Notes: a model not told the origin generated them from the letters alone. A DNA stretch of 64,000 nt from Chloroflexota bacterium (GCA_963662335.2 CAXXVD010000002.1:768001-832000); one strand, 5' to 3'. Positions 4,437 through 27,595 are shown, counted from the first letter of the stretch. Program-made: numbers and translations.

Positions 4437-5430
<994 letters not shown>

Positions 5431-9506: not shown

Positions 9507-9699
9507 TGTCATTCCGAGCGTAGCGAGGAATCTAGAGCGCAGCGAGGGATTCATAGCGTAGCGCGGGGGCTTGTCCCCCGCAAACGCGCAAATCTCCGTT
9601 CGTGCTGAGCTTGTCGAAGCATGAACGGAGCCTTGCCCGTTCTGAGTCTCTGCGCGCGCAACCCGCCGTTCACCCTTCGACGCCGCTCAGGGCGAACGG
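9507..9699. repeat. Mosaic cluster of palindromic repeats (families B, A, F)
   Basis: tgtcattccgagcgtagcgaggaatct (9507), gtagcgcgggggcttgtcccccgc (9558-9581), and an inverted pair ccgttcgtgctgagcttgtcgaag / cttcgacgccgctcagggcgaacgg. Confidence 0.8.
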
Positions 9700-9843
9700 C
9701 TTGGTGGACGACTATCCTCGGTTGGCAACTCTCTTGGTATAAAAAAACTCCGCTGCCCAGGCAACGGAGGATCATCCAAGCGAGAAAATGTCCTGCGAGA
9801 GCGACCTGCGAAAATGTCGGCGCGGAGAGCACTCGCGCGGCCT

Positions 9844-10221: not shown

Positions 10222-10484
10222 GCTTGCACTCCACTGTGGGCGGACTGCCCGCCCGTGCGTTCGCGCCACTTCGATTCGATTGTAGCGCAGTTTTGGCATG
10301 ACGGTCAAACGACCGGCCGCTTGCACTGCGCGACAGCATTGGGGCTTGTTTGCCAAGAGGCGGGGGACAAGCCCCCGCGCTACGTTAGTGATTGACAGTC
10401 CATGTCACTCCGAGCGCAGCGAGGAGTCTCGTGCCGTGCTCTAGGCAGTCTGCAGCTCCAGCACACGAGATTCCTCACTGCGCT

Positions 10485-10624
10485 GCGCTCCGTTCGGAAT
10501 GACAGGAATGCCGCGCTCCGTTCGGAATGACAAGAAAGCCGCGTTCCGTTCGGAAGGACAGGAGTGTTGCGCTTCGTTCGGAGTGACAAAAGTGTTGCGC
10601 TCCGTTCGGAATGACAAAAGTGCC
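10485..10624. repeat. Tandem array, 5 x 28 bp (20-bp gcgctccgttcggaatgaca core + 8-nt linker)
   Basis: Cores start at 10485, 10513, 10541, 10569 and 10597; they are an expansion of the family-B repeat arm. Confidence 0.9.
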
Positions 10625-10714
10625 AATACAACAAAACGGTCAAGCCTAAAGCCACCGAGGCCGAAGCAAGTTGCAGTTGACGACTCTACCCGCCATGCGC
10701 TATAAGAAATCGGG

Positions 10715-11209
10715 GTGGCACAGAAGTGTAGGTGCGCTTTGGCAATACGGCTTGGCATACGAATACTTGTCCTCCTTGTAATCTGCCTGGTACCGGCAAC
10801 ACCGGCTGCGGCCTTCTCATTCGTTGTCGAGCAAGAAGACGGCACGTTGACGAACCTGACGCGCTTCCGGCCGCCGGCCTTCCGGCGCGATCTTTCGGAA
10901 TATACCGTAATCCAGGTGGAGTACGGCAACGCCACGTACTACCATCCGTCGCTGCACGGCGGCACCATGGCCAACGGCGAAATCTACAGCCGTTACGACC
11001 CCATCATTGCCGCCAGCCCGTTCTTCCCGCTGGGATCCGTGGTGCGCGTCACCCGGCTTGCGACCGGGGCGAGCATCGTCGTCATCGTGAAAGACCGCGC
11101 GCCGTCGCCGGGCTTCATGTGGATCGACCTGAGCGAAGCGGCGTTCATCCAGTTGGCGCCCTTCATCACCGGCCGCTTCGACGTGCAAATCGAAATCCTG
11201 AGCAAGTGA
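10715..11209 (+). CDS. RlpA-like (DPBB) secreted lytic transglycosylase family protein
   Basis: Signal-peptide-like N-terminus; 'ATYY...HGGTMANGE', 'PLGSVVRVT', 'VKDR', 'IDLSEAAF'. Candidate promoter TTGACG-18-TATAAG at 10677-10706. Confidence 0.85.
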   Translation: MAQKCRCALAIRLGIRILVLLVICLVPATPAAAFSFVVEQEDGTLTNLTRFRPPAFRRDLSEYTVIQVEYGNATYYHPSLHGGTMANGEIYSRYDPIIAASPFFPLGSVVRVTRLATGASIVVIVKDRAPSPGFMWIDLSEAAFIQLAPFITGRFDVQIEILSK

Positions 11210-11243
11210 CCGCAGCCTACGTTTCGCGCCACCTCGCACTGTC

Positions 11244-12212
11244 ATGAAAACTACCGCGCACGCCATCGAACCGCTTACGCCCGTGCCTGAGCACGTGCTC
11301 GGCGTCCGCGAAGAGCTAAACCTGCTCACGTACGGCCCCAGCGAGATTCTGCTTGCCACGGCCGGCGGCGAGATTGCCGGCGCGGTGCGCCTGGCGCTGC
11401 GGGAGGACCCGCGCCGCCGCCACGGCCTCATCGCCGACCTGGCCGCGCACGAGGACTACGACCGCAAGGCGATTGCCGCAGACCTCATCGCCGCCGCCGA
11501 GGAGCGCCTGAAGGCGCGGGGCGTGACCAAGATCGACGCGATCGTGCGCGATGGCGAGGGCGCCACCGTGCCTTTCTACGAGCGCGGCTACTGGGCCGCC
11601 CGCAAGATGGTGCTGCTGACGTGGGACCTCGGCGGACTCGAAGCGCTTGAGTCGAGCGACGAATTTTCGATTGAAGAGCACGCCGCGCCCGACCCGGCGT
11701 TCCTCACGGACTTCGCGCTCGAAAGCTACCAACCCTACTGGCGCTGGTGGAAAGAGTATAAAGAGGACACGCGCTGGCACCGGGTGGAATACCCGGCTGA
11801 GCCGGAAGCGCCGCCGAGCGCGGAACTCGCCCAGGAGATGCGTGACCGCGTGGCGGCGCGTGTTGCTGCGTTCGGCGGGGCCGCGCCGCAGACGCTTTTT
11901 ACCGCGCGGCTGGACGGCGAGGTAGTGGCTCTCTGCGACGCCAAAGCCGCGGCGGACGACGTCACGTTCGATTGGGGCCTCCTCGTGCGCCGGGACTATG
12001 GCGGACGCCGCATCGGCTCGGCCCTGCTCGGGCACGCGCTCCACTGGCTCAAGGCGCGGGGCCTGGAGACCGCGCGCATCGTCACCACCTCCGGCCTGGA
12101 CGACTATGATCCGACGGTCTATCTCTACGCCGCCGCCCACGGCGGCGCGATTAGGGCAGAATACCTGAACCTGGTGAAGAGACGGCTGCACAGCGGCAGC
12201 AGGCCGGGGTGA
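11244..12212 (+). CDS. Tandem-domain GNAT acetyltransferase
   Basis: Two GNAT-like halves: 'DYDRKAIAADLI...FYERGY' and 'DYGGRRIGSALL'. Confidence 0.75.
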   Translation: MKTTAHAIEPLTPVPEHVLGVREELNLLTYGPSEILLATAGGEIAGAVRLALREDPRRRHGLIADLAAHEDYDRKAIAADLIAAAEERLKARGVTKIDAIVRDGEGATVPFYERGYWAARKMVLLTWDLGGLEALESSDEFSIEEHAAPDPAFLTDFALESYQPYWRWWKEYKEDTRWHRVEYPAEPEAPPSAELAQEMRDRVAARVAAFGGAAPQTLFTARLDGEVVALCDAKAAADDVTFDWGLLVRRDYGGRRIGSALLGHALHWLKARGLETARIVTTSGLDDYDPTVYLYAAAHGGAIRAEYLNLVKRRLHSGSRPG

Positions 12213-12258
12213 GCGCTGCGGCTACGCGGCAAACACCGTTTCGGCCTTCATCGAAAAC

Positions 12259-12286
12259 TTGACGGGTGTGGCGAAGCGTGTACACT
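12259..12286 (+). promoter_or_regulatory. Candidate sigma70 promoter for the ABC transporter operon
   Basis: TTGACG-16 nt-TACACT, followed by a roughly 100-nt leader with a hairpin and a strong AGGAGG RBS. Confidence 0.45.
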
Positions 12287-12395
12287 AAGGGCGTGACGCG
12301 CGTTGCCGCGGCGGTTCTCACGCTGAGGGATCAGCGGCAAGGCGCAAGGCAGGGGTGTTGCGGGAAGAATTTAGTCAGGAGAAGGAGGAGTTGCG

Positions 12396-14375
12396 GTGTT
12401 TAGGTCAATGTGGATGAGAGCGGCCGTCTTCGTGGTCGCCGTCTTGGCGGCGGCGGCGCTGGCGGCCTGCGCGCAGGAACCGGCGGCCATGCCGGAGGCC
12501 GCGCCGGAGCAAGAAGCGGAAGCGGCCGCGGAACCGGCCGCGCCGCAGGTCTACCGCATGGGCATCTTCGAGGAGCCCATTACGCGGAACTTCTGGAACT
12601 ACTACGGCGGCCCCGGCGGCTCGGTGTGGACGCAATACGTCCTGAGCGGCTGGGCCGGCGGCCTCTACGGCTACTCCGACCAGAACTTCGAGTGGGTGCC
12701 GAGTCTGGCGGCGGACTTCCCCACCGATCTGCAAAAAGAGACCGTTGACGGCACGGAATACTGGACCACCGAGGTGCCCCTTCGCCAGGGCATCATGTGG
12801 AGCGACGGCGAGGAACTGACGGCGGACGACGTCATCTTCACCGCGCACACCGTGCTGGAGATGGGCATTAGCGGCAACTTTGGCGCGGCGGTGGACCCGG
12901 CCTTCGTCGAACGCATCGAGGCCCTGGACAGCCATCGCATCAAGATCTTCTTCAAGGCGGCCGACGCTGACGGGAACCCGCAGACGCCCGGCCTGAGCGT
13001 GTGGCAGTTCGGCCTGGCTTTCATGCCGATTCTGCCGGAGCACTACTGGGCGCCGGTGGTCGCTGAGGCCAAGAAAGCCGGCGAAGCCGAGGCGCAGATT
13101 GAAGCGCTGATGGCCCACGTGCCCGAGAACGACCCCACCCTGGGCGGCTTCATGTTTGGCAGGTGGGAGCCCGGCGCGTTCATCGAGAACGCCAAGGTTG
13201 AGAACTACTACGCCACCGGCTCGGTCATCACGCGGTACGCCAGCGGCACGCTGCAAGAGGTGAACGAGCGGCTGGGCTACACCGCTACCTACTTCGGCGA
13301 GCCCGGCGGCGACAAGGAACTGGAGTACACGGTCGGCCCCCACGTGGATTCGGCCCTCTTCAGCATCTACGGCAACCAGGACGCGGCCATTCTGGCCCTG
13401 ACCAAGGGCGACATCGACTACGTCTTCAATCCCTTGGGCCTGGAGAAGGGTTTCCGCGAGCGCATCCAGGCGGCGGGCGACCTGGAAATCGTCACCAACC
13501 TGGATAACGGCATGTTCTACCTGGGCTTCAACGTGCGCAAGGAGCCCATGAGCATCCGCGAGTTCCGGCAAGCGGTGGCGGTCATGATCGACAAGGAGTT
13601 CGTGACCCAGACCGTGCTGCAGGGCGCGGCCATCCCGGCGTACTCCATGGTGCCGCCCGGCAACGCGGCCTGGTTCAACGCCGATACGGCCAAATTGGGC
13701 GCGGGCATGAGCAGAGGCGAACGGCTGGCGGAGGCGGTTGCGTTGCTCAAGAGCGCCGGCTTCACCTTTGAGGAAGAGCCGGAGATCAGTGAGGACGGCA
13801 ACTTCGTGGCCAAGGCCGGCAAGGGCCTGAAGATGCCCGACGGCTCCGACGTGCCGGCGCTGACCATCATCGCGCCCAGCGCGGGCTACGACCCGCTGCG
13901 CGCCACGTTCGCCATCTGGATCGAGCGCTGGTTGAACGACGTGGGCATCCCGGTGCGGGCCAACCTCACCGGTTTCAACGTCATCGTGGGCGTGCTCTTC
14001 AGCGATACGGTGCAAGAAGACCTGGACATGTGGATCCTGGGCTGGAGCCTGAGCCTCTTCCCGGACTACCTGGAGGTCTTCTTCAATAGCCGCCGCGCGC
14101 CGGAGAACGAGGGCGGCTACAACTGGGGCGGCTATGCCAATCCTGAGTTCGACACCATCTCGTTCAGCCTGCTCTCCGAGACAACCATCGAGGGCGCGCG
14201 CGACAAGGTCTTCCAGTTGCAGGAATTCCTGGCCGAAGACCTGCCGTACGTGACGCTCTTCACCGTGCCCAAGCTGGATTCCTACCGGCCGGGCAGCGTC
14301 GAGTACCCGTACACTGAGGTCCTCGGCGGACTGGAAGGCGTGGGCGGCATGCAGACGGCGGTGCAGGTGAAGTAG
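12396..14375 (+). CDS. Peptide/nickel ABC transporter substrate-binding lipoprotein (SBP_bac_5)
   Basis: Lipobox 'LAAC', 'LRQGIMWSDGEELTADDVIFT', 'FRQAVAVMIDK', 'EDLPYVTL'. Confidence 0.92.
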   Translation: MFRSMWMRAAVFVVAVLAAAALAACAQEPAAMPEAAPEQEAEAAAEPAAPQVYRMGIFEEPITRNFWNYYGGPGGSVWTQYVLSGWAGGLYGYSDQNFEWVPSLAADFPTDLQKETVDGTEYWTTEVPLRQGIMWSDGEELTADDVIFTAHTVLEMGISGNFGAAVDPAFVERIEALDSHRIKIFFKAADADGNPQTPGLSVWQFGLAFMPILPEHYWAPVVAEAKKAGEAEAQIEALMAHVPENDPTLGGFMFGRWEPGAFIENAKVENYYATGSVITRYASGTLQEVNERLGYTATYFGEPGGDKELEYTVGPHVDSALFSIYGNQDAAILALTKGDIDYVFNPLGLEKGFRERIQAAGDLEIVTNLDNGMFYLGFNVRKEPMSIREFRQAVAVMIDKEFVTQTVLQGAAIPAYSMVPPGNAAWFNADTAKLGAGMSRGERLAEAVALLKSAGFTFEEEPEISEDGNFVAKAGKGLKMPDGSDVPALTIIAPSAGYDPLRATFAIWIERWLNDVGIPVRANLTGFNVIVGVLFSDTVQEDLDMWILGWSLSLFPDYLEVFFNSRRAPENEGGYNWGGYANPEFDTISFSLLSETTIEGARDKVFQLQEFLAEDLPYVTLFTVPKLDSYRPGSVEYPYTEVLGGLEGVGGMQTAVQVK

Positions 14376-14469
14376 CAACGGCGAGAATCCGCAAAGGCGT
14401 TTGACGCCCGTTGAGGAATCTGACGCCTGCGCAGAATCTGACCCGCTGCGATTGCGCGGTTTACGACGG

Positions 14470-14497
14470 GTAGGGGCACGACGTGTCGTGCCCCTAC
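14470..14497. repeat. REP family D (gtaggggcacgacatgtcgtgcccctac)
   Basis: GTAG-headed palindrome; further copies at 34617 (degenerate), 34658-34685, 44812-44839, 57071-57098 and 62742-62769. Confidence 0.85.
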
Positions 14498-14594
14498 CCG
14501 TTTAAGGCTGTGGCGCGTCGGTTTGACTACGGCGCCGCAACCGTCAATAATGGGGCGCAATACATATCCACGCGCTTGACCGGGGAATTGGCGG

Positions 14595-15743
14595 ATGGCT
14601 GCCTATCTAATTAGCAGAACCCTGCAGATACTATTGACGCTCTTCGCGTTCATCTGCATCGTCTTCTTCCTCGTCAACGCGCAGCCGGGCGACATCAGCA
14701 ACGTCTACGCCATGAACCCCGAGTTGCCGCCGGATGCCCGCGAGCGGCTGCAAAACCAGTTTGGGCTCAACCAGCCGTTGTGGCAGCAATTCCTGGTGTA
14801 CGTCAAGAACATCCTCACCGGCAGTCTGGGCGTCTCGTTCACCCACTATCCCCGCAGCGTCATGGACGTGATTGCCGAGCGCCTGCCGCGCACGGTGGCG
14901 CTCTTCATGACGGCCACGATCTTCTCCTTCTACCTGGGTTTCCTGCTGGGCAAGATCATCGCCTGGAAGCGCGGCGGCTGGACCGAATACGCCACCACCC
15001 TGGGCGGCGTGACGCTCTACACGGTCTTTACGCCCTGGTTCGCCCTGATGATGATCTGGCTCTTCGCCTTCAAGGCCGGCTGGTTCCCCATCGGCAAGTT
15101 TCTGGACCCGGTCTTGTGGCGGGACGCGCCGCTGGCGGCGAACACGTTGTTTGGCCGCATGATGCTGACGGCGTTGGCGCTCTCCATCGTCGTCTTCGCC
15201 GTCTTTCTGGTCACCACGCGGCGGCGCATGGCCGGCGCGCGCTTCATTCAACTCGGCAGCCTCATCGCCGCCGTCGGCGTGATGCTCGGCGCGTGGTGGC
15301 TGACCGGTGTCGGCCATTTGGCCTGGGACATCGTGAAGCACATGATCTTGCCCGTGTTCACGCTCACCCTCATCAGCTTTGCCGGCACCATGCTGCTCAC
15401 GCGCAACAGCATGTTGGAGACCATGCGCGAGGACTTCGTGCTGGCGGCCCGCGCCAAGGGCCTGCCGGATAAAGCCGTGCGCGACCGGCACGTGGCGCGC
15501 AACGCCCTGCTGCCGGTGGTCACCAGCCTGGTTTTCAGCCTGGCGTTCGCCGTGGACGGCGGCGTGATTATCGAATCGGTATTCTCCTGGCCCGGCATGG
15601 GGCAGACGCTGGTGGCGGCGGCGATTTCGGAAGACCTGCCGCTGGCGGTGGGCGCGTTCGTCTTCGTCGGCATCTTCGTCCTGCTGGCCCACCTGGCCGT
15701 GGACGTGCTCTACGTCTACCTTGACCCAAGGATTCGCTACTAA
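14595..15743 (+). CDS. Peptide ABC transporter permease (OppB/DppB-like)
   Basis: 'PGD...FGLNQPLWQQF', EAA loop 'EDFVLAARAKGL', 'ESVFSWPGMG'. Confidence 0.93.
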   Translation: MAAYLISRTLQILLTLFAFICIVFFLVNAQPGDISNVYAMNPELPPDARERLQNQFGLNQPLWQQFLVYVKNILTGSLGVSFTHYPRSVMDVIAERLPRTVALFMTATIFSFYLGFLLGKIIAWKRGGWTEYATTLGGVTLYTVFTPWFALMMIWLFAFKAGWFPIGKFLDPVLWRDAPLAANTLFGRMMLTALALSIVVFAVFLVTTRRRMAGARFIQLGSLIAAVGVMLGAWWLTGVGHLAWDIVKHMILPVFTLTLISFAGTMLLTRNSMLETMREDFVLAARAKGLPDKAVRDRHVARNALLPVVTSLVFSLAFAVDGGVIIESVFSWPGMGQTLVAAAISEDLPLAVGAFVFVGIFVLLAHLAVDVLYVYLDPRIRY

Positions 15744-16693
15744 TGGCCGTGGAAGCAACACCGCAACCGGCCGCGCCGTCGCTGCGCAAAGTGCGGCTCG
15801 GCCTGGCGGCGCGCAGCCTGCGCGAAAACTGGTCGCTCTTCGTCAGCACGCGCATCGGGCTGATCGGGTTGACCGTGATCCTCTTCTATATGTTGCTCGC
15901 GCTGGCGCATCCCATTCTGATGAACACCGTGTGGGACGAGCGCATCTACGACCCGGTGGTGGGCTACGCCTTCGATGAGACCCGCCAACCGGCGCCGCCC
16001 AGCCGCAGCCACCTGCTGGGCACGGACCCCCTGGGCCGTGACATCCTGAGCCAACTGATGTACAGCACCCGCACGGAATTCCTGCTGGGGCTGCTGGCCG
16101 CCATCGTCACCGTCGTGATCGGCACCACCGTCGGCGCGATCGCCGCCTACTACGGCGGTGTGATCGATACCCTCCTGATGCGCTTTGCAGACATCATGGT
16201 GATGATGCCGGGCATCAGCATCCTCATCGTCTTGAGCGCGCTGATTGGCGTGGAACACCTGGAGTTGGCGCTCATCATCGGCATCTTATCGGGTTTTGGC
16301 GGCGCGAGCATTCTCTTGAAGTCACAGGCGCTTTCCGTGGTTGTCAAGCCGTATATCGAAGCGGCACGCGCGGCCGGCGGCGGCCCGGCGCACATCATCT
16401 TCATCCACATCGTGCCCAACCTGCTGCCGCTTTCGTTCCTCTACATGATGTTCACCGTCACCGGCGCGATCTTCTCGGAAGCGGTCTTGAGTTTTCTCGG
16501 CCTGCTGGACGTGCGCATGAGTTGGGGCCTGATGATCCACACCACCGAGGCCGCCGGCTACCTGCTGCAAGTCGGCGCGTACTGGTGGCTCATCTTCCCG
16601 GCCAGCCTCTCCATTACGCTGCTCTGCTCCTCGTTCTACCTGGTGGGGCGCGCCATGGATGAGGTGATCAACCCCAGATTGCGGCGCTTATGA
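15743..16693 (+). CDS. Peptide ABC transporter permease (OppC/DppC-like)
   Basis: 'HLLGTDPLGRD', 'YIEAARAAG', 'HIVPN', 'EAVLSFLG'. Confidence 0.93.
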   Translation: MAVEATPQPAAPSLRKVRLGLAARSLRENWSLFVSTRIGLIGLTVILFYMLLALAHPILMNTVWDERIYDPVVGYAFDETRQPAPPSRSHLLGTDPLGRDILSQLMYSTRTEFLLGLLAAIVTVVIGTTVGAIAAYYGGVIDTLLMRFADIMVMMPGISILIVLSALIGVEHLELALIIGILSGFGGASILLKSQALSVVVKPYIEAARAAGGGPAHIIFIHIVPNLLPLSFLYMMFTVTGAIFSEAVLSFLGLLDVRMSWGLMIHTTEAAGYLLQVGAYWWLIFPASLSITLLCSSFYLVGRAMDEVINPRLRRL

Positions 16694-17655
16694 GCGGCGC
16701 TCCCCTGCTGGCCGTGGAAGACCTCACCCTGCACTACAACACGCGGGCCGGTGAAGTCTGCGCCGTGGACGGCGTTTCGCTCGCGCTGCACCGGGGCCAG
16801 TCGCTGGGACTGGTGGGGGAATCCGGCTGCGGCAAGTCGTCCCTGGCGCTGGCGCTGCTGCGGCTGCAGCCGGATAACGCGCGCATACTCGGCGGCAAGA
16901 TCCTGTTGGACGGCATAGACCTGGTCGCGCTTTCCGAGGATAAGATGCGTTCCTACCGCTGGGACCGTATCGCCATGGTCTTCCAATCGGCCATGAACGC
17001 CTTGGACCCGGTGTACCGCGTGGGCGACCAGATCATCGAGGCGCTGGAGGAGCACGTCAATGCGTCGCGGCCGGAAATGATCGAGCGCGTGCACGCGCTC
17101 TACGACCTGGTGAACCTTTCGCACAACTTCATTCCGCGCTATCCCCACGAGTACAGTGGCGGCATGAAGCAGCGCGCCATCATCGCCATGGCCCTGGCCT
17201 GCGAACCGGACCTCATCATCGCCGACGAGCCCACCACGGCCCTGGACGTGATCGTGCAAGACCACATTCTGCGCGAATTGCAGAATATCCGCGCGGAATT
17301 GAACATGAGCATGCTCTACATTTCGCACGACATGGCGGTGATTGCCGAGGTGAGCGACGTGGTGGCGGTGATGTACGCCGGCAAGATCGTGGAATACGGC
17401 ACGGCGGAAGAAGTCTTTGCCCGGCCCATTCACCCCTACACCCGCGCGTTGATGTCGGCCTTTCCCAGCGTGACCGGCGAGAAGCAGGAACTGGCGACCC
17501 TGGGCGGCGAGCCGCCAAACCCGCTGGAATTGCCGTCCGGCTGCCGCTTCCATCCGCGCTGCCCGCACGCGACCGAGAAGTGCGCCGAGCAGGAACCGCC
17601 CACCGTGCGCCGCGGCGCGCACTGGGCCGACTGCTGGCACCCACCGGAGGACTAG
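16690..17655 (+). CDS. Peptide ABC transporter ATPase (OppD/DppD-like)
   Basis: GESGCGKS, 'YPHEYSGGMKQR', 'IADEPTTALD', C-terminal 'GCRFHPRC'. Confidence 0.95.
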   Translation: MSGAPLLAVEDLTLHYNTRAGEVCAVDGVSLALHRGQSLGLVGESGCGKSSLALALLRLQPDNARILGGKILLDGIDLVALSEDKMRSYRWDRIAMVFQSAMNALDPVYRVGDQIIEALEEHVNASRPEMIERVHALYDLVNLSHNFIPRYPHEYSGGMKQRAIIAMALACEPDLIIADEPTTALDVIVQDHILRELQNIRAELNMSMLYISHDMAVIAEVSDVVAVMYAGKIVEYGTAEEVFARPIHPYTRALMSAFPSVTGEKQELATLGGEPPNPLELPSGCRFHPRCPHATEKCAEQEPPTVRRGAHWADCWHPPED

Positions 17656-17759
17656 AACCGATTTCAGATAACTCCGTTTAGACCCCCTCTCCCTGAGGGA
17701 GAGGGCCGGGGCGAGGGTGAAGACGTAGAGCAAGTTTGCGTTGAAGAGGAATAGCGCCG

Positions 17760-18779
17760 ATGACCGATTCGGCAAACACAACAGCCGCCGAAGACCGCCC
17801 CCTGCTGCGGGTAGAGGGCTTGCGCAAGCATTTTCCCGCCGCCACCTCCCGCTTCCGGCGCAACCGGCGCTTCATCCACGCCGTGGACGACGTCAACTTC
17901 ACCCTGGGCCGGGGCGAAAGCCTGGGATTGGTGGGCGAATCCGGCTGCGGCAAGACCACGACCGGCAAGATGCTCGTGCGGCTAATAGACCCCACTGAAG
18001 GCCGCGTGCTCTTCGACGACGGCGCCGGCGAGCCGACGGACATCGCCACCCTGCGCGGCAAGCCCCTGAAGGAATTCCGGCGGCGCGCGCAGATGATCTT
18101 CCAAGACCCGTACGAGTCCATGAACCCCCGGCGCACGATCTACGACACCATCGCCGAGCCGCTCCAGGTGCAGCAGATCGGCACGCTGGTGGAGCGCATC
18201 GACCGCGTGACGGAAATGCTGGCGCTGGTGGGCCTGACGCCGCCGCGCGCCTTCCTCTTCCGCTACCCCCACGAACTCTCCGGCGGCCAGCGGCAGCGCG
18301 TGGCGATCGCGCGGGCGCTGGTGGTGGAGCCGTCGTTTGTGGTGGCCGACGAACCGACCTCCATGTTGGACGTCTCCGTGCGCACCGGCGTGATGCGGCT
18401 GATGGCGGACCTGGCCGAGGGCCTGGGCATCGGCTATCTCTACATCACCCACGACCTGGCGGTGGCGCGCTACATGTGCACCCGCATCGCGGTGATGTAT
18501 CTCGGCAAGATCGTGGAAATCGGCGATACGGAGGAAATCCTGCGCCGCCCGCAACACCCCTATACCCAGGCCCTGCTGTCCGCGGTGCCCGTCCCCGACC
18601 CCACCGTCACCCGCGCCCCGGTCAACATCAAAGGCGGCGTCACGACCCTCATCAACCCCCCGCCCCAATGCCGCTTCTACCCCCGCTGCCCCCAAGCCGA
18701 CAACTTCTGCCGCGACAACGACCACCCACCCCTGGAACGCAAAGGCCAGGAGCAAGAAGTGGCTTGCTACAAGGCGTAG
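17760..18779 (+). CDS. Peptide ABC transporter ATPase (OppF/DppF-like)
   Basis: GESGCGKT, 'LSGGQRQR', 'ADEPTSMLD', 'HPYTQALL'. Confidence 0.95.
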   Translation: MTDSANTTAAEDRPLLRVEGLRKHFPAATSRFRRNRRFIHAVDDVNFTLGRGESLGLVGESGCGKTTTGKMLVRLIDPTEGRVLFDDGAGEPTDIATLRGKPLKEFRRRAQMIFQDPYESMNPRRTIYDTIAEPLQVQQIGTLVERIDRVTEMLALVGLTPPRAFLFRYPHELSGGQRQRVAIARALVVEPSFVVADEPTSMLDVSVRTGVMRLMADLAEGLGIGYLYITHDLAVARYMCTRIAVMYLGKIVEIGDTEEILRRPQHPYTQALLSAVPVPDPTVTRAPVNIKGGVTTLINPPPQCRFYPRCPQADNFCRDNDHPPLERKGQEQEVACYKA

Positions 18780-18928
18780 CCAGCGGCGCAGTTGTTCAGC
18801 GACACTTTCGTTGCTAAAGTATGATGAGCGGGTCGAATGCACTCGCAGAAAGACATTACGTCATCGGATCGACTACAGCAACGAGAGCACTGGCATGAGA
18901 CGAGCGATCCAATGAACAAAGCACTTCT

Positions 18929-19798
18929 ATGCTAACGAAAACCGGAACTGTGACCTACCGTGCTCTCAGCCTGGGTGCAGGCGTGCAGAGTTCTGTGTTG
19001 GCACTTCTTCTGTCCCGATCCGACCCCGGCTTGCTCGAACTTGGCTACCCCAAACCAAATGTCGCCGTGTTTGCCGACACTGGTTGGGAACCAGAGTATG
19101 TTTACCGCCACCTTGACTGGCTTGAAGAGCAACTTGACTATCCGCTAATCCGCGTATCTGATGGCGACATAAAGACAAACCTGAAGCAGGGGCGCACGGT
19201 TTCGGGACACCGGTTTGTGGATGTACCGTTGTTTATGGTGAACCCGGATGGTAAGAAAGGCATGTTGCGGCGGCAGTGTACAAGCCATTATAAGGTTAGA
19301 CCCATCTATCGTGAGATTAGACAGCTTGCAGGTGGACAACGCGGGCGGCCATTCCCAAAAGACACGTACGCTGAAATGTGGCTTGGGATATCTCGGGACG
19401 AGGTGGCGCGTATCAAGCCCAGCCGAGAACCATGGGTTGAACACCGCTGGCCGCTTGTGGAACTTGGTATGTCGCGCCAGGACTGCCTAGAGTGGTTCGC
19501 TTCTGAATACCCGGGCCGTCACCTTCCCCGGTCAGCTTGCGTCATTTGTCCCTATCGCTCGGATGAACACTGGCTGGAACTAAAGCGGTCTGAGCCTGAC
19601 AGTTACAACGAGGCCGTGAAGTTCGATGTATGGCTGCGAAATAGCGCAACGAACCCCGTGAGGGAGATCCTCAACGGCCGTCCGTACCTTCATGCTGCGC
19701 GCCGACCTCTTGCTAGCGTCATCGCTGAACGGGAATCTGATGATTCAGACGCGAACGACTACTTTGTCGAGGAGTGCGAGGGCGTCTGCGGTGTATGA
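18929..19798 (+). CDS. PP-loop / PAPS-reductase-like (adenine nucleotide alpha-hydrolase) Cys-rich protein, putative DNA-modifying enzyme
   Basis: 'SLGAGVQS' PP-loop, 'FADTGWE', 'RQCTSHYK..PI', 'WLGISRDE..R', 'WPL', 'SACVICPY' and C-terminal 'ECEGVCGV'. Confidence 0.8.
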   Translation: MLTKTGTVTYRALSLGAGVQSSVLALLLSRSDPGLLELGYPKPNVAVFADTGWEPEYVYRHLDWLEEQLDYPLIRVSDGDIKTNLKQGRTVSGHRFVDVPLFMVNPDGKKGMLRRQCTSHYKVRPIYREIRQLAGGQRGRPFPKDTYAEMWLGISRDEVARIKPSREPWVEHRWPLVELGMSRQDCLEWFASEYPGRHLPRSACVICPYRSDEHWLELKRSEPDSYNEAVKFDVWLRNSATNPVREILNGRPYLHAARRPLASVIAERESDDSDANDYFVEECEGVCGV

Positions 19799-21053
19799 GG
19801 CGCACACGGAGACGGTTAGCCCCAAGTATTCGCTTCATCCGTACCAGCGGCAGGTGCTGACTGACATCTTGCAGGCCCTGTCATCGCCTGAGCGTCGGGT
19901 CGTTGCGCACTTGCCAACCGGCGCTGGCAAGACGAGAATTGCCGCCCATGCTGCGTGCCGGCTGCTCAACGAGAATGACAACTACGACAAGCGAAGTGAG
20001 GAGCCCCTTGTAATCTGGTCGGCGTCTACAGAGGAGCTTTGCGAACAGGCGGCAGACCAACTTTCAGAGGCGTGGTCGTATCTGGGTTTGCGGGATGCTT
20101 CCATTCACCGCTATTGGGGCAACCGGTCGCTAGACCTGCGGCGACTGTCTTCTGGGTTCTTGGTAACCGGTCTTGCTAAACTGCATTCCGTTGCGTCCCG
20201 AGATAACACACTACTTGCGCACCTGGCCCATTGTACGGCAGGTGTGATCTTTGACGAGGCCCACCAGGCAGTTGCCGAGACCTACGCTTTTGTCACTGAG
20301 CAGCTATGCAGCACGCGGCCGCCTCTCCTCGGCTTGACCGCAACACCGGGGCGCACCGCGAACCTTACGGATGCTGACCATCAGCTTGCCGCTATGTTCG
20401 ATTACAAGAAAGTGTCAATAGACCCTAGAGGACATGAGAGCGCCGTTGCCTACCTCATTCAGAATCGCTACCTGGCTGACACGCGCTTTGTGCCGGTGGA
20501 CTTTGACTCTGATTTTGCAGTCGCAGACCCTCGCCCCGGCCTGGACTATAGTCGGCATGACCTAGCTGAACTGGGCCGCGACGAGCGCCGGACACGTGTG
20601 ATCGCTGAACACGCTATGGGTGCCGTTAGACGGCATCAGCGCACTATTGTGTTCTGCCCCTCGGTGGAGAGCGCACATATGTGCAACCGGCTTCTCTTGG
20701 CTGAGGGCATGGCTACTCACGTGATTACTGCGAAAACGTCCAGCGAGGAACGCCAGGACATCATAGCCACTTTCAAGAGCGACAGTAGGGAGCACATGGT
20801 GTTGTTCAACTACGGCGTGCTTACCGCCGGTTTCGACGCTCCGCGAACTCGTTGTGTCATTATCGCTCGCCCTACCACTTCATTGGTGCTCTATTCGCAA
20901 ATGGCGGGGCGCGCAATGCGCGGCCCTAGAGCCGGCGGCAACCCAAGAGCCGAAATACTCACTGTTGTCGACACGAACCTTCCAGGGTTCGGGTCAGTGA
21001 CCGAGGCGTTCACAAACTGGGAGGAACTATGGAAGACCAACTCGCCGAACTAA
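19791..21053 (+). CDS. SF2 DEAH-box helicase (ResIII-like), no evident nuclease domain
   Basis: 'LHPYQ', 'LPTGAGKT', 'FDEAH', 'GLTATP', 'VFCPSV', 'LTAGFDAP', 'QMAGRAMR'. Likely GTG start at 19791, overlapping the upstream stop. Confidence 0.9.
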   Translation: MYEAHTETVSPKYSLHPYQRQVLTDILQALSSPERRVVAHLPTGAGKTRIAAHAACRLLNENDNYDKRSEEPLVIWSASTEELCEQAADQLSEAWSYLGLRDASIHRYWGNRSLDLRRLSSGFLVTGLAKLHSVASRDNTLLAHLAHCTAGVIFDEAHQAVAETYAFVTEQLCSTRPPLLGLTATPGRTANLTDADHQLAAMFDYKKVSIDPRGHESAVAYLIQNRYLADTRFVPVDFDSDFAVADPRPGLDYSRHDLAELGRDERRTRVIAEHAMGAVRRHQRTIVFCPSVESAHMCNRLLLAEGMATHVITAKTSSEERQDIIATFKSDSREHMVLFNYGVLTAGFDAPRTRCVIIARPTTSLVLYSQMAGRAMRGPRAGGNPRAEILTVVDTNLPGFGSVTEAFTNWEELWKTNSPN

Positions 21054-22891
21054 GAGATGCAGACCGCAGCCTGTTTCCAGGTAGTTTTACAATACGCGCC
21101 ATTAGGGACAGCCGATACCATAGTACCGCATATGCAATTGCCGAGCTTATTGACAACTCAGTCGAAGCAGGGGCGCCTTTAGTCGAACTCTTGTGCATGG
21201 AAGATTCTCAGTTGGCGGAGGTGCGGACTCGGCGACGAGTATCCGAAATTGCAGTCCTAGATAACGGTGAAGGCATGAGCGCAAGAACGTTACTCGACGC
21301 CCTCAAGTTTGGTGGAGGCACTCGGCACGACTCTAATACGGGAATCGGCAAGTACGGCATGGGACTTCCTACTTCTTCAATGTCTCAATGCAAGAAAGTG
21401 GATGTTTGGACTTGGCAGAACGGACTGGATTCTGCATTGCATTCTAGCATTGACGCCGACGAGATTGAGAAAGGAAACCACGAGGTACCTATTCCTAACC
21501 GAGATACTCCAATTCCCGATACATGGAGAAGCGCCGGCAGCGATGAGATATATCGCAGCCGCTCAGGGACCCTTGTCGTATGGAGTAATCTGGACAAGAT
21601 TCAGTGGAAGACTTCTAAGGCAATTATCGAGAACTTGTCCAGGGAGGTTGGGCGCATCCATCGGCATTACATCAATCAAGAAATACATAGGATTCAGGCT
21701 GCATCATTCCTAAAGGATCGGGCTAGCGAACTCAAAAACAGAATACGGATTGTGGCAAACGATCCTCTCTACTTGATGACGCCTTCATCTACTCCAGAGG
21801 GGTGGGATACCAAGGCGATGTTTCGGGAGTGGGGTCCCACTAAAGACTATACGGTCTGGGTGGATGACCGGGAAGCGGTTATTCAGGTGAAATACTCGAT
21901 TGTGAAAGCCGAAGCTTTGAAGACTGATAGTATTTCGCAGCTTCCTGGCAACACTGAACGTGGCAGGCATGCAAGACATAACATTGGCGTGTCGGTCGTG
22001 CGCGAGGATAGAGAGCTAGTGCTTGAAGACGCGTTTCTGAGAGAGGGTGGCAGCACTGAGAACCCGCAAAATCGTTGGTGGGGGTGTGAAGTTCTTTTCT
22101 TTCGCAATTGTGATGAGCTGTTTGGCGTAGACCACAATAAACAGATGGTTGCAAACTTCACGCAAGCGGCAAAGGCTCTCGCTCGAGATGACCGCCCTCA
22201 ACATCGCATACTTGAAGAGATCGGGATCGACGAAAATGACCCGCTATATGCATTGGTGGGTGACATTCGGAACCAGACACGTGCCATGATGCGTGAAATC
22301 GGACAGATGTTTACACAGCGACGAGGGACCCAAGGACCGCGCGGTCGCAGGGGAAGTCCCGAAAAAAAGGCCGCAAGGACGGCTACCGATGCAGACCGAG
22401 ATGCTATGGCTAGCGGTGAAGAAAAGCCGACCGAGACTGACAGAGAACGAATGCAAAAGCCGGCCAATCAGCGAGAAGATGGTCTCAAGGCACAGTTCAT
22501 CTCGTATGGTCAGGCAGAGCAAGATGCCCAGGATCTCGCAAGGATGCTGGTACAGGAGGATCTCTCGTACCAGTTCACCTCAAGAAACCTTCCCGGTTAC
22601 CAGATTTTCAATGTGGAACGAAAGGAGGGTGTCCTTCTAATCGAACTCAATACTGACCATCCAGTCTACGACTTGCTGAGGCATGTTGAAGGTCGACTCG
22701 ACGAGGAAGGTGACGAGAGCGATCCTGCATTCCAATCAATCGTCGCTATCAGACTCTTGTTGTCTTCTTGGGCCCGGATGGAAGACCAGACCGAGTCCGA
22801 TCCCGATCGAAGACACATTCAACACATTGCAATGGATTGGGGACGTCAGGTAGACAAGTTCATTAGTCAACTCCGTGAAAGAGATGGTTAG
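21029..22891 (+). CDS. GHKL (HATPase_c) ATPase, prokaryotic MORC-like
   Basis: Bergerat motifs 'AELIDNSVEA', 'DNGEGM', 'IGKYGMGL', 'GTLVVW'; late 'IELNTDHP'; GAGG RBS; 25-nt overlap with the helicase. Confidence 0.88.
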   Translation: MEDQLAELRDADRSLFPGSFTIRAIRDSRYHSTAYAIAELIDNSVEAGAPLVELLCMEDSQLAEVRTRRRVSEIAVLDNGEGMSARTLLDALKFGGGTRHDSNTGIGKYGMGLPTSSMSQCKKVDVWTWQNGLDSALHSSIDADEIEKGNHEVPIPNRDTPIPDTWRSAGSDEIYRSRSGTLVVWSNLDKIQWKTSKAIIENLSREVGRIHRHYINQEIHRIQAASFLKDRASELKNRIRIVANDPLYLMTPSSTPEGWDTKAMFREWGPTKDYTVWVDDREAVIQVKYSIVKAEALKTDSISQLPGNTERGRHARHNIGVSVVREDRELVLEDAFLREGGSTENPQNRWWGCEVLFFRNCDELFGVDHNKQMVANFTQAAKALARDDRPQHRILEEIGIDENDPLYALVGDIRNQTRAMMREIGQMFTQRRGTQGPRGRRGSPEKKAARTATDADRDAMASGEEKPTETDRERMQKPANQREDGLKAQFISYGQAEQDAQDLARMLVQEDLSYQFTSRNLPGYQIFNVERKEGVLLIELNTDHPVYDLLRHVEGRLDEEGDESDPAFQSIVAIRLLLSSWARMEDQTESDPDRRHIQHIAMDWGRQVDKFISQLRERDG

Positions 22892-22893
22892 TC

Positions 22894-23748
22894 GTGTCGT
22901 ATACCCACGGCGACTTGCTGGGAAGCCTTTGTGCCGGCGCGCAGCGCTTGATCATTGCAGCACCTTACATCAAGACTTATGCACTTGCTAGACTATTGGC
23001 AGAACTTGACCCACTGGCAACCCTAATTTGCGTTACGCGGTGGAACCCACACGACCTTGCCGTCGGTGCTTCCGATGCAGACTGTCGCGCTATAGTCTTG
23101 CGGCGGGGTGGATCCTTCAGACTGCATCCCTCCCTGCACGCCAAGTACTACCGTATTGATGACGTGGTTCTCATTGGCTCCGCGAATCTCACGGCTTCTG
23201 CATTAGGCTGGTCCGCACAACCAAACTTGGAGATTCTTTGCCGTGCCGTTGACAACTTTGACGCAAGCGCATTCCAGCAAGAATTGATGGACGGCTCGCG
23301 AGAGATTACTGACGAAGAATTCGCGTATTGGGAGTCGATTTCAAAGATCACGGCCCCAACTAACCAGCCAATTGCTGGCGGTCAGCCTGTGCTTGAAACG
23401 TGGAGACCTTCAACACGCGACCCGAGAAACGTAGAACTTGCCTATCAAGGCAGAGAAGACGACATAGCCTCACTTGATGAACAGAGTGCGGCGCAAAGGG
23501 ACATCCAAGCCCTTTTGATACCGCCGGGTCTGAACGATGAGCAGGTTCGTGCATGGGCATCGGGCTGCTTGCTCGCCGCCCCTTTTGCCAACTCCGTGAT
23601 GCGGCTGCATGGTATAGATACGCCAACCGCCTCCCGCATACTCGCCGAGAACTATAGCATCAACATTACCGAGGCGAGAAGAGACATGGAAACCGTGCAG
23701 AACTGGCTGGCGTTTCTCGCCCCGGAGGCCACCTCAAAGCTCCCTTGA
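22894..23748 (+). CDS. Phospholipase D-family (single HKD) nuclease-like protein
   Basis: 'IAAPYIK' and 'LHAKYYRIDD..LIGSANLT' (HxKxxxxD..GSxN); starts 2 nt after the ATPase stop. Confidence 0.85.
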   Translation: MSYTHGDLLGSLCAGAQRLIIAAPYIKTYALARLLAELDPLATLICVTRWNPHDLAVGASDADCRAIVLRRGGSFRLHPSLHAKYYRIDDVVLIGSANLTASALGWSAQPNLEILCRAVDNFDASAFQQELMDGSREITDEEFAYWESISKITAPTNQPIAGGQPVLETWRPSTRDPRNVELAYQGREDDIASLDEQSAAQRDIQALLIPPGLNDEQVRAWASGCLLAAPFANSVMRLHGIDTPTASRILAENYSINITEARRDMETVQNWLAFLAPEATSKLP

Positions 23749-25030: not shown

Positions 25031-27283
25031 TTACTTGAATCGCTGGCCGATGTATTCTAAGGCCATCTTGAGCGGTAGTTCAGTTGTAGAAGGGCCGGTA
25101 CGAACGTAGAACCGTTCGTCGTTGCCATCCGTTACGTAAACAGGGGCCCGGGATGCCTCGCAGCGAACGACCAAGACACGCCCCCCTTCGAAGTCGTCAA
25201 AATTGGCGTGCATGAACGCCCAGACACTCGCTCCCATTCTCTCATTCACGATGTTGACCAGATGCAGACCCATGCGGTCCTCATTTGAAAAGCCGTCATC
25301 CTTCAAGCCAAGAGGCGAGCCGTCGTCAGCGACGCCAATGAGCAGCGTGCCGCCGCTCTTGTTTAGGAACCCGGCTAAAGTCTTGAGCGCCGACAGTTCA
25401 ATTCGGCTATCCCGCTTGCCTGTGTGGAGATTGACGCGGAGCGTCGACTTGAATTCGACTAAGTCGGATTCCCCGCCTGCTATCAGACTCTCCAGGTCGA
25501 TTGCATCAGTCTCGTCCTCAACGCCTATCGGTGTTGCAAGTTGCTGATACCCTTCTCGCATTATTTGCGCGATCAACTCCCGGCGTTTTCCTAAGAAAGC
25601 CCAATAATCCATGCTTTCCCAGCCGTCGGGCAGCCCATGGCGCACGTACATGTGTGCTAACGCCTCTTCGCAGAATCGTTCCCGCATAGGCGGCAGGTAC
25701 TCCTGCGGGGATTGAGCGGACATCCTTGCGTTATCCGTCCACTCCACGTAAGCATAATTGGCAATCTGATTGACGTCTCTTGTCGCTGTTATGCCGTTTT
25801 GCGCCAGATGGCCCCTTGGAAACAGATGGTGTCGCTCTATACTTCTGTGGCCGCCCCGCCAAGCAGGATCCAGCATTTCCGATATAGAAAATTCGGAGAA
25901 GAGAACTGGAGCATCCAGCAGGACCAGTGAAGCTTCGAACGCAAAGAGCGATGGACTGCGGGCAGAAGAGGTCGCGAGTTCACTTGGCAGCGTCACTTCC
26001 CAGAAGTCAGTGGTAAGTGTCACGTTGCATGTTTGATGAAGCTTGGCTGCGAACTCGTCAGCCGACTTAACTCCCCGCAACATTGCCAGATCGGACTCCA
26101 TCCGAGACTCCGGTGAGCCTGTGTAGCGGCCGGTCACGGCGGACATGAAGAACCACTGGGCGATGACCTGCCGGAGCGCGTGTTCTTCCATGCCAAGTTC
26201 TGTTTTACCAATCAAGTAAAGGATGTACGAATAGAGTAGCGCGGTCTGAGAGCTTATCATTCGGCGCGAACGGTAGCCGGCCCTTCTCAGACAGTGCATG
26301 AAGTCGTGCCAGTTCTGCAGGTTCAGCACTTTCGATTGGGCGTCTCTCAGCCGCTCGAACTGGTCGTCCCGCCGCTCTTCGCTGAACTCTCCAGATTCCA
26401 AGTCCTTCCCGCGCAATATCGAGTACACGTGTTCCAGCCTGGCTCGTTTGAATGCCAGCCCTACCCCCACACGAAGCATCTGATCAGGAGAGGGTTCAAT
26501 GAAGTGATTGTGCGGCGACGGCTCGCCGGTTGTTGGCGTACGGGCCTCTCTGCAGAAGCGTTCTAACTCAGTTCTCCCCTCATCCCAAAAGACTGACATA
26601 AGCGTGAGGATAAAGTCCGCCTGGTTGAGCGTCTTGCCCTGGCTATTGATCCTGACAAAGACTTCCGCAACCGCTTCCTCCGACGTTTCAGCGGATAGTT
26701 GGAGTGCGGTGAAGGGAAACCCGACCAGGCCTTGGAGCTTCGTGATGGCCGCTCGGATCGACCTGACCTCTTGGCTGGACAGTTCCCGCGCGGAGCGAAG
26801 CCCACTGAGATAGTCGTCTGCAACCTGGAACAGATCGGTCTCGTCGCTCCATAGCCGTGAAATGTCCGGGATGAATGACCTGTCGCGTTCAATCGCAGCG
26901 CTGGTCACCTCGAACACCTCTTCCATGGGGTTGAAGGCGATGCGGATGCGCTCGCTTCGGTAATTACTGCGAACGACGGTGGCTCCTTTGATTACGGCGA
27001 AGAGTGAGGTCAATCTCTGCTGACCATCGACGATGACCAAGCTAGGCGCGAGTTGTTTGGCATCCGAACCGATTGCCCTGTGCCCGGAGAGCAGCCCGTT
27101 TTGCCAGAAGAGCAGATACCCCACCGGATATCCCCGGTACATGGAGTCGAATAAGTCGCGGACTTTCGTGTTAGGCCAGACGAACGGCCGCTGAATGTCC
27201 GGCAGCCCAATCTGTCCCATGTCGATGTCATTGACGAGCTTCTCTAATGGAAATGTCACTTGTGCGAAGGCCGTCTTGCTCAT
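25031..27283 (-). CDS. GmrSD-type (DUF262 + DUF1524/HNH) restriction nuclease with C-terminal AlbA_2/Schlafen domain
   Basis: 'IQRPFVW', 'VDGQQRLT', 'FVRINSQG' (DUF262); 'HHLFP..NQIAN...DN' (DUF1524); 'GESDLVEFKS..AGFLNKSGGTLLIGVADDG..YVRTGPST' (AlbA_2). Confidence 0.85.
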   Translation of the reverse strand: MSKTAFAQVTFPLEKLVNDIDMGQIGLPDIQRPFVWPNTKVRDLFDSMYRGYPVGYLLFWQNGLLSGHRAIGSDAKQLAPSLVIVDGQQRLTSLFAVIKGATVVRSNYRSERIRIAFNPMEEVFEVTSAAIERDRSFIPDISRLWSDETDLFQVADDYLSGLRSARELSSQEVRSIRAAITKLQGLVGFPFTALQLSAETSEEAVAEVFVRINSQGKTLNQADFILTLMSVFWDEGRTELERFCREARTPTTGEPSPHNHFIEPSPDQMLRVGVGLAFKRARLEHVYSILRGKDLESGEFSEERRDDQFERLRDAQSKVLNLQNWHDFMHCLRRAGYRSRRMISSQTALLYSYILYLIGKTELGMEEHALRQVIAQWFFMSAVTGRYTGSPESRMESDLAMLRGVKSADEFAAKLHQTCNVTLTTDFWEVTLPSELATSSARSPSLFAFEASLVLLDAPVLFSEFSISEMLDPAWRGGHRSIERHHLFPRGHLAQNGITATRDVNQIANYAYVEWTDNARMSAQSPQEYLPPMRERFCEEALAHMYVRHGLPDGWESMDYWAFLGKRRELIAQIMREGYQQLATPIGVEDETDAIDLESLIAGGESDLVEFKSTLRVNLHTGKRDSRIELSALKTLAGFLNKSGGTLLIGVADDGSPLGLKDDGFSNEDRMGLHLVNIVNERMGASVWAFMHANFDDFEGGRVLVVRCEASRAPVYVTDGNDERFYVRTGPSTTELPLKMALEYIGQRFK

Positions 27284-27595
27284 TGCAATTGCTCTCCGTG
27301 GCTTGCAGGACAATGATAGTCAAGGAAGTCGCAAGCACGCATGGGCCTTTCACCCGCCAATCCAAGCACTTGATGCCTGCCCATTCTCGTGACCTTCCTG
27401 CTTGCTCAATCCTATGTACGGGTACTTTGGCAGTCCTGGGATCCACTCCGGGAACTGAAACCAAAGCGGCGTGCACCCCGCAGTGAAATCCAGGTACTAT
27501 TGCCACGCACACTCCAGACTACTCGCTTGCGCGCGGCCTGGTCTAGCAGCGTTGCGTGACCTTGCAAAGACTCATGTCGAGCGGCAATCGAACTC

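Follow-up and report, generated by a model that had tools for sequence, protein, structure and literature searches.

A mobile four-gene cassette coupling a PAPS-reductase-like protein to a helicase, a MORC-like ATPase and a PLD-family protein: a candidate modification-restriction system

What does a gene for a 3'-phosphoadenosine 5'-phosphosulfate (PAPS) reductase-like protein do when it is packed together with genes for a superfamily 2 (SF2) helicase, a MORC-like ATPase and a phospholipase D (PLD)-family protein? Such a set occupies positions 18929-23748 of a 64,000-nt stretch of Chloroflexota bacterium DNA (GCA_963662335.2 CAXXVD010000002.1:768001-832000; the whole stretch is called the window below). 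A preliminary description had proposed that gene 1 writes a non-methyl self mark on DNA and that the other three proteins carry out restriction. The comparisons reported here suggest, with a probability a little better than even, that the cassette is a compact mobile modification-restriction system in which gene 1 marks DNA with sulfur, probably as phosphorothioate, while the trio of genes 2-4 restricts unmarked DNA. That it provides some modification-restriction defence of this general logic, with phosphorothioate or another mark, we consider fairly likely. The ORFs (open reading frames) of the window place four overlapping or tightly packed plus-strand genes within these positions, preceded by a spacer:

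18780-18928, + strand: upstream spacer, 149 nt from the stop of an ATP-binding cassette (ABC) operon to gene 1; presumed promoter/leader, a role assumed from position
18929-19798, + strand: gene 1, 289 aa, PAPS-reductase-fold protein with a Cys set typical of Fe-S clusters; proposed DNA-marking enzyme
19791-21053, + strand: gene 2, SF2 DEAH helicase/translocase, 420 aa from the GTG at 19791; the frame is open back to 19692
21029-22891, + strand: gene 3, 620 aa, MORC-like GHKL ATPase with GHKL and transducer/S5-like domains at residues ~16-430 and a C-terminal part of ~190 aa
22894-23748, + strand: gene 4, 284 aa, PLD-family protein with a single HKD motif, presumed to be a nuclease; a domain of ~145 aa at the C terminus is conserved

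A pointer to function comes from distant relatives of genes 2-4, which lie beside ssp genes. Gene 3 was searched over 401 genomes of the window's phylum, which gave 14 matches, including the window's own genome and G363, which enters no other comparison. In genome G064 the homologues of genes 2, 3 and 4 (43, 40 and 33% identity) stand directly in front of SspA, SspB, SspC and SspD on the same strand (PADLOC E 1e-100 to 0), and in G292 a set of SspB-SspC-SspD-SspE is followed by a MORC homologue (33%). A gene 3 relative is present in 31 PLSDB plasmid records; 12 of them cover at least 80% of gene 3 at 33-35% identity, and all 12 were inspected. Ten of these, two of them near-identical Trichormus plasmids, have an SspD homologue within 9 kb and mostly also encode DUF4007/SspB, a large SspC ATPase and a cysteine desulfurase; BLAST found a gene 4 homologue in 10 of the 12 plasmids. 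SspABCD also stands beside the trio on both IMG/VR contigs that have a gene 3 relative. Taking the distant gene 3 homologues (33-41%) together, true SspD, mostly as SspBCD, adjoins them in 14 of 16 loci examined. Judged by gene content, the ssp modification module of these distant loci is replaced in the cassette by gene 1 alone. The adjacency of SspD to the trio homologues supports, short of proof, the earlier proposal that gene 1 is a non-methyl, sulfur-type modifier beside a restriction trio.

The cassette itself recurs. In the loci whose gene 1 is at least 68% identical, the MORC gene stands in the cassette position in 18 of 18, and all four genes are present in the same order in 13 of 14 loci tested, the fourteenth being cut by a contig end. 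Thirteen loci came from a scan of species-representative genomes: 12 keep the order of the four genes, and in one the contig ends inside gene 3. From gene 1 to gene 4, protein identities over these loci are 71-80%, 64-74%, 63-71% and 46-68%. These 13 belong to Latescibacterota, Chloroflexota (Dehalococcoidia and Caldilineaceae), Binatia, Acidobacteria, Alphaproteobacteria and Gemmatimonadetes, and the cassette loci span at least six phylum-level groups. Further copies were found in G003 (at the same site), G082 (68, 55, 50 and 49% identity for genes 1 to 4), G020, G032 and G040, and the best 120 matches of a gene 3 search are 67-74% identical. The preliminary description had asked for the conservation of the gene neighbourhood to be examined, and on these counts the four genes are a recurrent unit. 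Flanking genes and DNA are common only to cassettes of close relatives, and no terminal direct or inverted repeats were found at the cassette ends; for these reasons we take the four genes to be the whole travelling unit. From its distribution the cassette is a horizontally spread, self-contained unit. Within the genus it is patchy: 3 of 16 other genomes match gene 1, of which only G003 has the cassette and two have a fusion form with DUF6339.

Some copies depart from the intact form. At 6043-6397 of locus L001, 1.6 kb upstream of an intact cassette, lies a second gene 1/gene 2 fragment (71-75% identity over 38 and 87 residues) that is probably a decayed duplicate. In G020:C1:134969-136725 the MORC gene is in two frames (residues 1-129 and 129-589) and is probably broken. 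In G040:C1:2773435-2777385 gene 1 is 81% identical and the MORC gene only 46%, a mismatch that suggests exchange of modules between cassettes.

Strong lateral spread, a patchy distribution and decayed copies (the L001 fragment and the split gene 3 of G020) would also suit a cassette whose main role is not defence against phages but selfish addiction or maintenance, or DNA repair; in addition, the repair helicase RadD is the best named relative of gene 2. However, gene 2 scores 108 bits against the RadD family model, far under its cut-off of 720. The homologues of the trio pair with ssp modules, for whose partners SspE and SspFGH defence is experimentally established in the account of PMC8092258, and defence-type genes cluster nearby. 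In restriction-modification systems, addiction and defence can also go together. We regard a chiefly selfish or repair role as quite improbable.

The layout of the locus agrees with what was first described. With the GTG at 19791 as the start of gene 2 (GAGGG lies 9-13 nt upstream, and the G003 copy also has a 420-aa ORF), the junctions are an 8-nt overlap between genes 1 and 2, a 25-nt overlap between genes 2 and 3 and a 2-nt gap between genes 3 and 4. The GC content is 0.50-0.58 over 19000-23499 vs. 0.63-0.68 upstream and 0.64-0.67 just downstream, and an Opp-type ABC operon (14595-18779) ends directly in front, as expected of the AT-rich insert after an ABC operon that had been reported. 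The downstream neighbor is a convergent gene of the MR/MLE enolase family (enolase superfamily), and the flanking ORFs are transport and metabolic genes. In the same-genus genome G001 a gene for a pyrroloquinoline quinone (PQQ) beta-propeller protein occupies the cassette site and in G003 the cassette stands there, and thus the four genes are a variable insert. A consensus scan of the spacer (18780-18928) detected no sigma-70-like site, and promoter and terminator scans stayed at the level of shuffled sequence. A search for sequencing runs listed no RNA holder; it returned three DNA holders from a single study, and one small-share run. The absence of a methyltransferase and of PglZ was borne out: no such domain is present in the four cassette proteins or the ten flanking ORFs. 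The core motifs of the DEAH helicase, the GHKL ATPase and the HKD protein were likewise recovered; SLGAGVQS in gene 1, listed there as the PP-loop, is not a canonical one, since SspD has SGG[KR]DS at that place.

Gene 1 is only loosely tied to named families. It scores 19.6 bits against Pfam PAPS_reduct (PF01507), below the cut-off of 22.5, and matched no NCBIfam model, no DndC model and not the BrxP model of PADLOC; a single-sequence search of PDB sequences also found nothing. The SspD model of PADLOC aligns at 1.5e-12 (45.8 bits, profile positions 4-200 of 277), whereas true SspD proteins reach 332-364 bits; the match to PHROG 424, 'phosphoadenosine phosphosulfate reductase', has E 1.3e-42. 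An AlphaFold2 (AF2) model was built on a 112-sequence alignment, with a predicted local distance difference test (pLDDT) score of 93.6. Its best folds are PAPS and adenosine 5'-phosphosulfate (APS) reductases (Z 10.7-11.8 over 166-175 residues), after which rank the Fe-S tRNA thiolases NcsA (Z 10.6) and TtuA (Z 9.5) and other PP-loop enzymes; Foldseek, with TtuA and CysH at E about 1e-4, agrees. By this model gene 1 has the Rossmann-like PP-loop fold of the PAPS reductase/PP-loop ATP pyrophosphatase superfamily. In the 112 sequences of the family there is no variation at C117, C204, C207 and C287, and C186 and C283 are kept in at least 90%, a pattern typical of Fe-S PAPS-reductase-like enzymes, and gene 1 is probably an Fe-S enzyme. 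In its GAGVQS loop G16, G18 and Q20 are invariant over the 112 sequences, with Q in place of D. True SspD in the same alignment has SGG[KR]DS where the family has GAGVQS with its invariant Q, and the 'PP-loop' of gene 1 is therefore degenerate. CysH carries Q at the same loop position. Common to gene 1 and true SspD in the alignment are R115, C117, T118, K122, C204, C207 and C287.

These features bear on whether gene 1 could follow the same mark-self logic with another mark, that is, write a different sulfur- or nucleotide-dependent modification such as a thiolated base. The folds of NcsA and TtuA are nearly as good as those of the reductases, the loop reads GAGVQS instead of SGGxDS, gene 1 sits on a long branch apart from SspD, the cassette trio is only 33-44% identical to Ssp-linked trios, and PbeAC modules pair with methylases as well, according to PMC6459918. 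On the other hand, the sole modification genes found beside trio homologues are ssp (14 of 16 loci), and gene 1 and SspD have their Cys constellation in common. We therefore consider another mark unlikely, and prefer a sulfur mark of the phosphorothioate type.

Where did gene 1 come from? A word-indexed search gave 5,437 relatives at E<=1e-3, the best 120 of which are 72-91% identical, and an exhaustive search of 50%-identity representatives gave 4,107 clusters at E<=1e-3, of which 1,185 reach E<=1e-30. Members are mostly ~260-300 aa long; others, of ~545 aa, have DUF6339 at the N terminus. In a maximum likelihood tree of 132 rows (midpoint root, quick search, Shimodaira-Hasegawa-like approximate likelihood ratio test (SH-aLRT) without bootstrap), nine cassette copies of gene 1 form one clade (SH-aLRT 98) nested in short stand-alone forms, and five true SspD proteins sit on a long separate branch (SH-aLRT 100). 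By the position of the clade, the gene 1 of the cassette came from the stand-alone family and not from ssp. Phage homologues were found in 47 records (30-43% identity), annotated as PAPS reductase and without partner genes; in the two regions inspected they lie singly among early or replication genes. Such lone homologues fit an enzyme working without SspB/C-like partners. In 80 metagenome loci with a 39-46% identical gene 1 homologue, none has a relative of gene 3 or 4 and two have a weak helicase match. The sole solved structure found by the family profile was PDB 21fy chain C, 'PptA' (270 aa, E 1.3e-3); the match covers the CxxC region, and no paper on PptA turned up in the literature searched.

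Gene 1 might instead act on one of its partner proteins, or produce a small molecule governing the nuclease machinery, like the QueC-like PP-loop enzymes of some defence systems. A Cap9-CdnD complex with protein modification is among the fold matches of gene 1 (9nto_B, Z 8.6), and the degenerate loop together with the absent DNA-targeting partner leaves the substrate open. Against this, the phage members stand alone, no metagenome locus of the 80 couples the family to gene 3 or 4, and elsewhere the trio pairs with a whole DNA-modifying SspBCD set; we judge a protein or small-molecule substrate improbable.

The three partners are clearer as to family. Gene 2 matches ResIII (1.8e-18), Helicase_C (6.5e-16) and DEAD in Pfam, all above their cut-offs (E 1e-15 to 1e-18), and its translation contains GAGKT, DEAH, TATP and QMAGRAMR; by these motifs it is an SF2 helicase with two RecA-like lobes and motifs I, II (DEAH), III and VI. 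Its best matches are PbeA in PADLOC (7e-20) and RadD in PDB (2.3e-18). Gene 3 matches HATPase_c_3 at 3e-21 (76.3 bits, cut-off 25), and E39, N43, D78, G80, G107, G110 and G112 do not vary among 21 sequences with identities as low as 33%. In its AF2 model (pLDDT 80.9) residues 16-430 align to the two-domain ATPase modules of MORC proteins, with MORC3 at Z 22.8 (304 aa, 3.4 A), MORC4 at 21.4, SMCHD1 at 21.1 and MORC2 at 19.2; outside MORC, Hsc82 (19.6) and MutL (18.9) follow, so that MORC3, MORC4 and SMCHD1 lead by 1-4 Z units. On the model, gene 3 is a MORC-type GHKL ATPase with a Bergerat-fold N-box and G-boxes and an S5-like transducer domain. Its residues 440-620 gave no Pfam match at E<=1, and the fold searches barely probed this C-terminal part. 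Gene 4 scores 27.0 bits against PLDc_2, exactly equal to the cut-off, and the residues H82, K84, D89, G95, S96 and N98 of its HxK(x)4D(x)6GSxN motif are invariant in 16 sequences; from this motif it is a single-HKD PLD-family protein and a presumed nuclease. Its matches to DrmC are 1.7e-7 (28.5 bits) in PADLOC and 20.5 bits vs. a cut-off of 133 in NCBIfam. For its C-terminal part Pfam gave nothing at E<=1, and the Atlas leads were weak, below 0.9. Searches of PDB sequences with genes 3 and 4 as single sequences gave nothing. A complex prediction for genes 3 and 4, each with its own alignment, had a score of 0.07 (mark 0.32), which counts neither way on binding; assembly of the helicase, MORC-like and PLD proteins into one complex is our inference.

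The genome of the host also speaks to the role of gene 1. The simplest view would be that of an ordinary assimilatory PAPS/APS reductase beside unrelated genes: its closest folds are such reductases, and the phage homologues are annotated so. Yet gene 1 stays under the Pfam cut-off and is matched by no NCBIfam model; it also shares 8 nt with the helicase gene and accompanies it in 18 of 18 loci. Furthermore, in the host genome (G000, 96% complete) PF01507, which also covers CysD and CysH, had no match at E<=1e-3, and there was no APS kinase (PF01583) and no ATP sulfurylase (PF01747). Assimilatory sulfate activation was thus not detected in the host genome by its sequence, and the lack of ATP sulfurylase, APS kinase and any other PF01507 member, hence of a substrate route, makes an ordinary metabolic role unlikely; we put an assimilatory reductase as highly improbable. 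The same genome has 12 matches to Aminotran_5, the cysteine-desulfurase family. No SspB or SspC was found in it, a weak scan for SspB, whose model matched in no control genome either; by tblastn, SspA, SspB and SspC homologues are absent from the 64-kb window and from 15 cassette loci.

How, then, would the cassette work? We propose that gene 1, recruited from a stand-alone family of phages and mobile elements, would place sulfur on host DNA, most likely in the backbone as phosphorothioate, drawing it from a housekeeping cysteine desulfurase. The mark is most likely sulfur because relatives of the trio pair with phosphorothioating genes, because the Cys set of SspD is common to gene 1 and because the host has many desulfurase-family genes. 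Genes 2-4 would survey DNA using ATP and damage DNA without the mark: by analogy, the SF2 motor of gene 2 may translocate along DNA, the MORC-type ATPase of gene 3 may clamp it, and the single-HKD nuclease of gene 4 may cut as a dimer. The chemistry of the mark, the sufficiency of gene 1, the three-protein assembly and a mark that blocks rather than activates the trio are inferred. By analogy with Ssp, the mark may keep the trio from acting, in the manner of SspFGH, or may be what arms it, in the manner of SspE. There are precedents in the literature: SspFGH damages unmarked DNA and is toxic without sspBCD (PMC8092258), and PbeA, an HKD-SF2 helicase fusion, works with dnd genes (PMC6459918; PMC10853773).

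Several points weigh against a phosphorothioate-writing gene 1 with its own restriction trio. SspD is missing nearby in 2 of the 16 distant loci (L143 and L147), which means that the trio is not strictly tied to ssp genes: on an Agrobacterium plasmid an FtsK/SpoIIIE gene lies downstream instead of SspD, and a Cyanobacterium HL-69 plasmid has no SspD and only a cysteine desulfurase nearby. The cassette helicase is without the N-terminal ~100-130 aa present in Ssp-linked helicases (ResIII starts at residue 143 in the L136 helicase vs. about residue 13, counted from the GTG, in gene 2). Gene 1 is 23-26% identical to SspD and falls on a different tree branch, and with the canonical SGGxDS loop absent, ATP-dependent backbone adenylation (the ATP-pyrophosphatase step) is not assured from its sequence. 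No SspB-, SspC-, DndD- or DndE-like DNA-targeting or ATPase partner was found in the cassette, its flanks or the genome. Finally, the evidence for the function of the cassette is entirely comparative.

We also compared the cassette with known systems. PADLOC-DB v2.0.0 (2023) returned single-gene partial matches only, with no catalogued system covering the four genes. The full-text literature searched contained neither the four-gene set nor an ssp module with a MORC/GHKL partner, so the earlier impression of a combination without a name has held; the supplements of PMC12914056, PMC8092258, PMC10853773 and PMC2292703, the Tdp paper and subscription reviews lay outside that search and may bear on priority. 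The defining components of Ssp, Dnd-Pbe, BREX (bacteriophage exclusion) type 4 and DISARM were each tested and not found, and the cassette is thus not a member of any of these; we would rather class it as a compact form of phosphorothioation defence akin to Ssp, Pbe and Tdp than as a new kind of system. In Tdp, TdpA is a hexameric translocase and TdpB a nuclease, and to our knowledge no MORC or PLD protein has been reported there. TdpABC, hypercompact and found in thermophiles, resembles the cassette in its compactness, and one gene, tdpC, is said to write phosphorothioate alone (PMC12914056).

SspABCD with SspE or SspFGH is like the cassette in having a PAPS-reductase-fold enzyme with the same conserved Cys/Arg/Lys positions and in joining modification to restriction. 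It differs in that the cassette has no SspA, SspB (DUF4007) or SspC and gene 1 is not an SspD orthologue; the Ssp restriction genes, SspE (DUF262) and SspFGH (Walker A plus FtsK-like, as described in PMC8092258), are also unlike genes 2-4. As a separate observation, positions 5705-17982 of the Agrobacterium plasmid NZ_CP039925.1 (L143) hold a divergent helicase-MORC pair and then three genes ending with one for an FtsK/SpoIIIE-domain protein, a make-up that recalls SspFGH or DndFGH; no PAPS reductase lies within 9 kb. DndCDEA-PbeABCD likewise pairs restriction with PAPS-reductase-based modification, and PbeA joins PLD/HKD to ResIII/Helicase_C (PMC6459918), two parts that the cassette splits between genes 4 and 2. 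Unlike the cassette with its GHKL/MORC protein, Pbe has PbeC, a CxC ABC ATPase, and its DndE-like PbeD and small PbeB (PMC10853773) are absent here; gene 2 matches the PbeA model via the helicase part alone, and genes 3 and 4 match no Pbe model. The accessible text of Rakesh et al. (2024) on dnd systems does not use the words MORC and GHKL (PMC10853773).

The prokaryotic MORC-SF2 helicase-nuclease operons of Iyer, Abhiman and Aravind (2008; PMC2292703) likewise have a MORC GHKL ATPase beside an SF2 (Rad25-like) helicase, in some cases with HKD, and were read as restriction machinery; unlike the cassette these operons are methylase-linked, and the accessible text has no PP-loop or DndC and uses 'sulfur' once, in a species name. 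In BREX type 4 the PAPS-reductase-fold protein BrxP replaces the methyltransferase and writes phosphorothioate with BrxC (PMC12914056). None of the four cassette proteins matches BrxP, BrxC, PglZ or BrxL, and BrxP carries a DUF4007 fusion and extra domains (PMC12839542), unlike gene 1. DISARM differs as well: there was no match to DrmA or DrmB (DUF1998), and the DrmC matches of gene 4 are weak. A last likeness is to the PADLOC candidate system PDC-M33, since the same-genus genomes G009 and G014 each have a three-gene set in which a gene-1-like domain (47-49%) is fused to DUF6339, the fusion lying behind the A and B genes (PADLOC A 2e-69, B 5.5e-23, C 1.9e-17):

L022 (G009), 9718-14043: PDC-M33-like set
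L023 (G014), 634-4986: PDC-M33-like set

The partner proteins of these sets are unrelated to those of the cassette by BLAST and hhalign, and there is no helicase or PLD protein; we know of no experimental data for PDC-M33. The PDC-M33A-like protein has an EVIQNSLDA motif at the GHKL N-box position and no significant similarity to gene 3. PDC-M33A was considered as a hidden MORC and rejected: BLAST and hhalign were nonsignificant, with only the N-box-like motif aligned (E 0.13), and Pfam gave nothing at E<=1. PDC-M33B as a hidden PLD was rejected too, its BLAST comparison not being significant.

In the neighborhood of the cassette, the minus strand of the window encodes at 25031-27313 a 760-aa protein with GmrSD_N/DUF262 at its N terminus and Schlafen AlbA_2 at its C terminus, in a low-GC patch of its own (~0.55). 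It matches PADLOC HEC-05 (3e-36) and, weakly, SspE (9e-4), and the gene is missing from the corresponding site in G001 and G003. Genes of the DUF262 type directly follow a cassette in L002, a PDC-M33-like variant in L023 and an Ssp-linked trio in L140.

If the proposal is right, the cassette would be a minimal four-gene system of ~4.8 kb in which one small enzyme replaces the three- to five-gene Ssp/Dnd modification machinery, and it would offer a tractable model for sulfur insertion into DNA. It has been reported that 83.9% of 2,678 sspBCD loci are without a known restriction partner, SspE or SspFGH (PMC8092258); the helicase-MORC-PLD trio would be the restriction partner for some of them. 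Phage PAPS reductases have been proposed as DNA-modifying anti-defence or evasion genes in PMC13551039 and PMC11437467, and a bolder and rather doubtful extension is that the 'phage PAPS reductase' family consists of single-enzyme DNA sulfur modifiers, with a chemistry unlike that of Dnd, Ssp and Tdp (the Q-for-D loop), that disguise phage DNA; here one would have been captured as a self marker, with the MORC ATPase reading the backbone mark. Were that extension true, gene 3 would be a prokaryotic forerunner of the eukaryotic MORC proteins that act on epigenetically marked DNA. The proposal itself would give prokaryotic MORC ATPases a testable function, and likewise the widespread phage 'PAPS reductase' genes, for which a role in sulfur metabolism is usually assumed.

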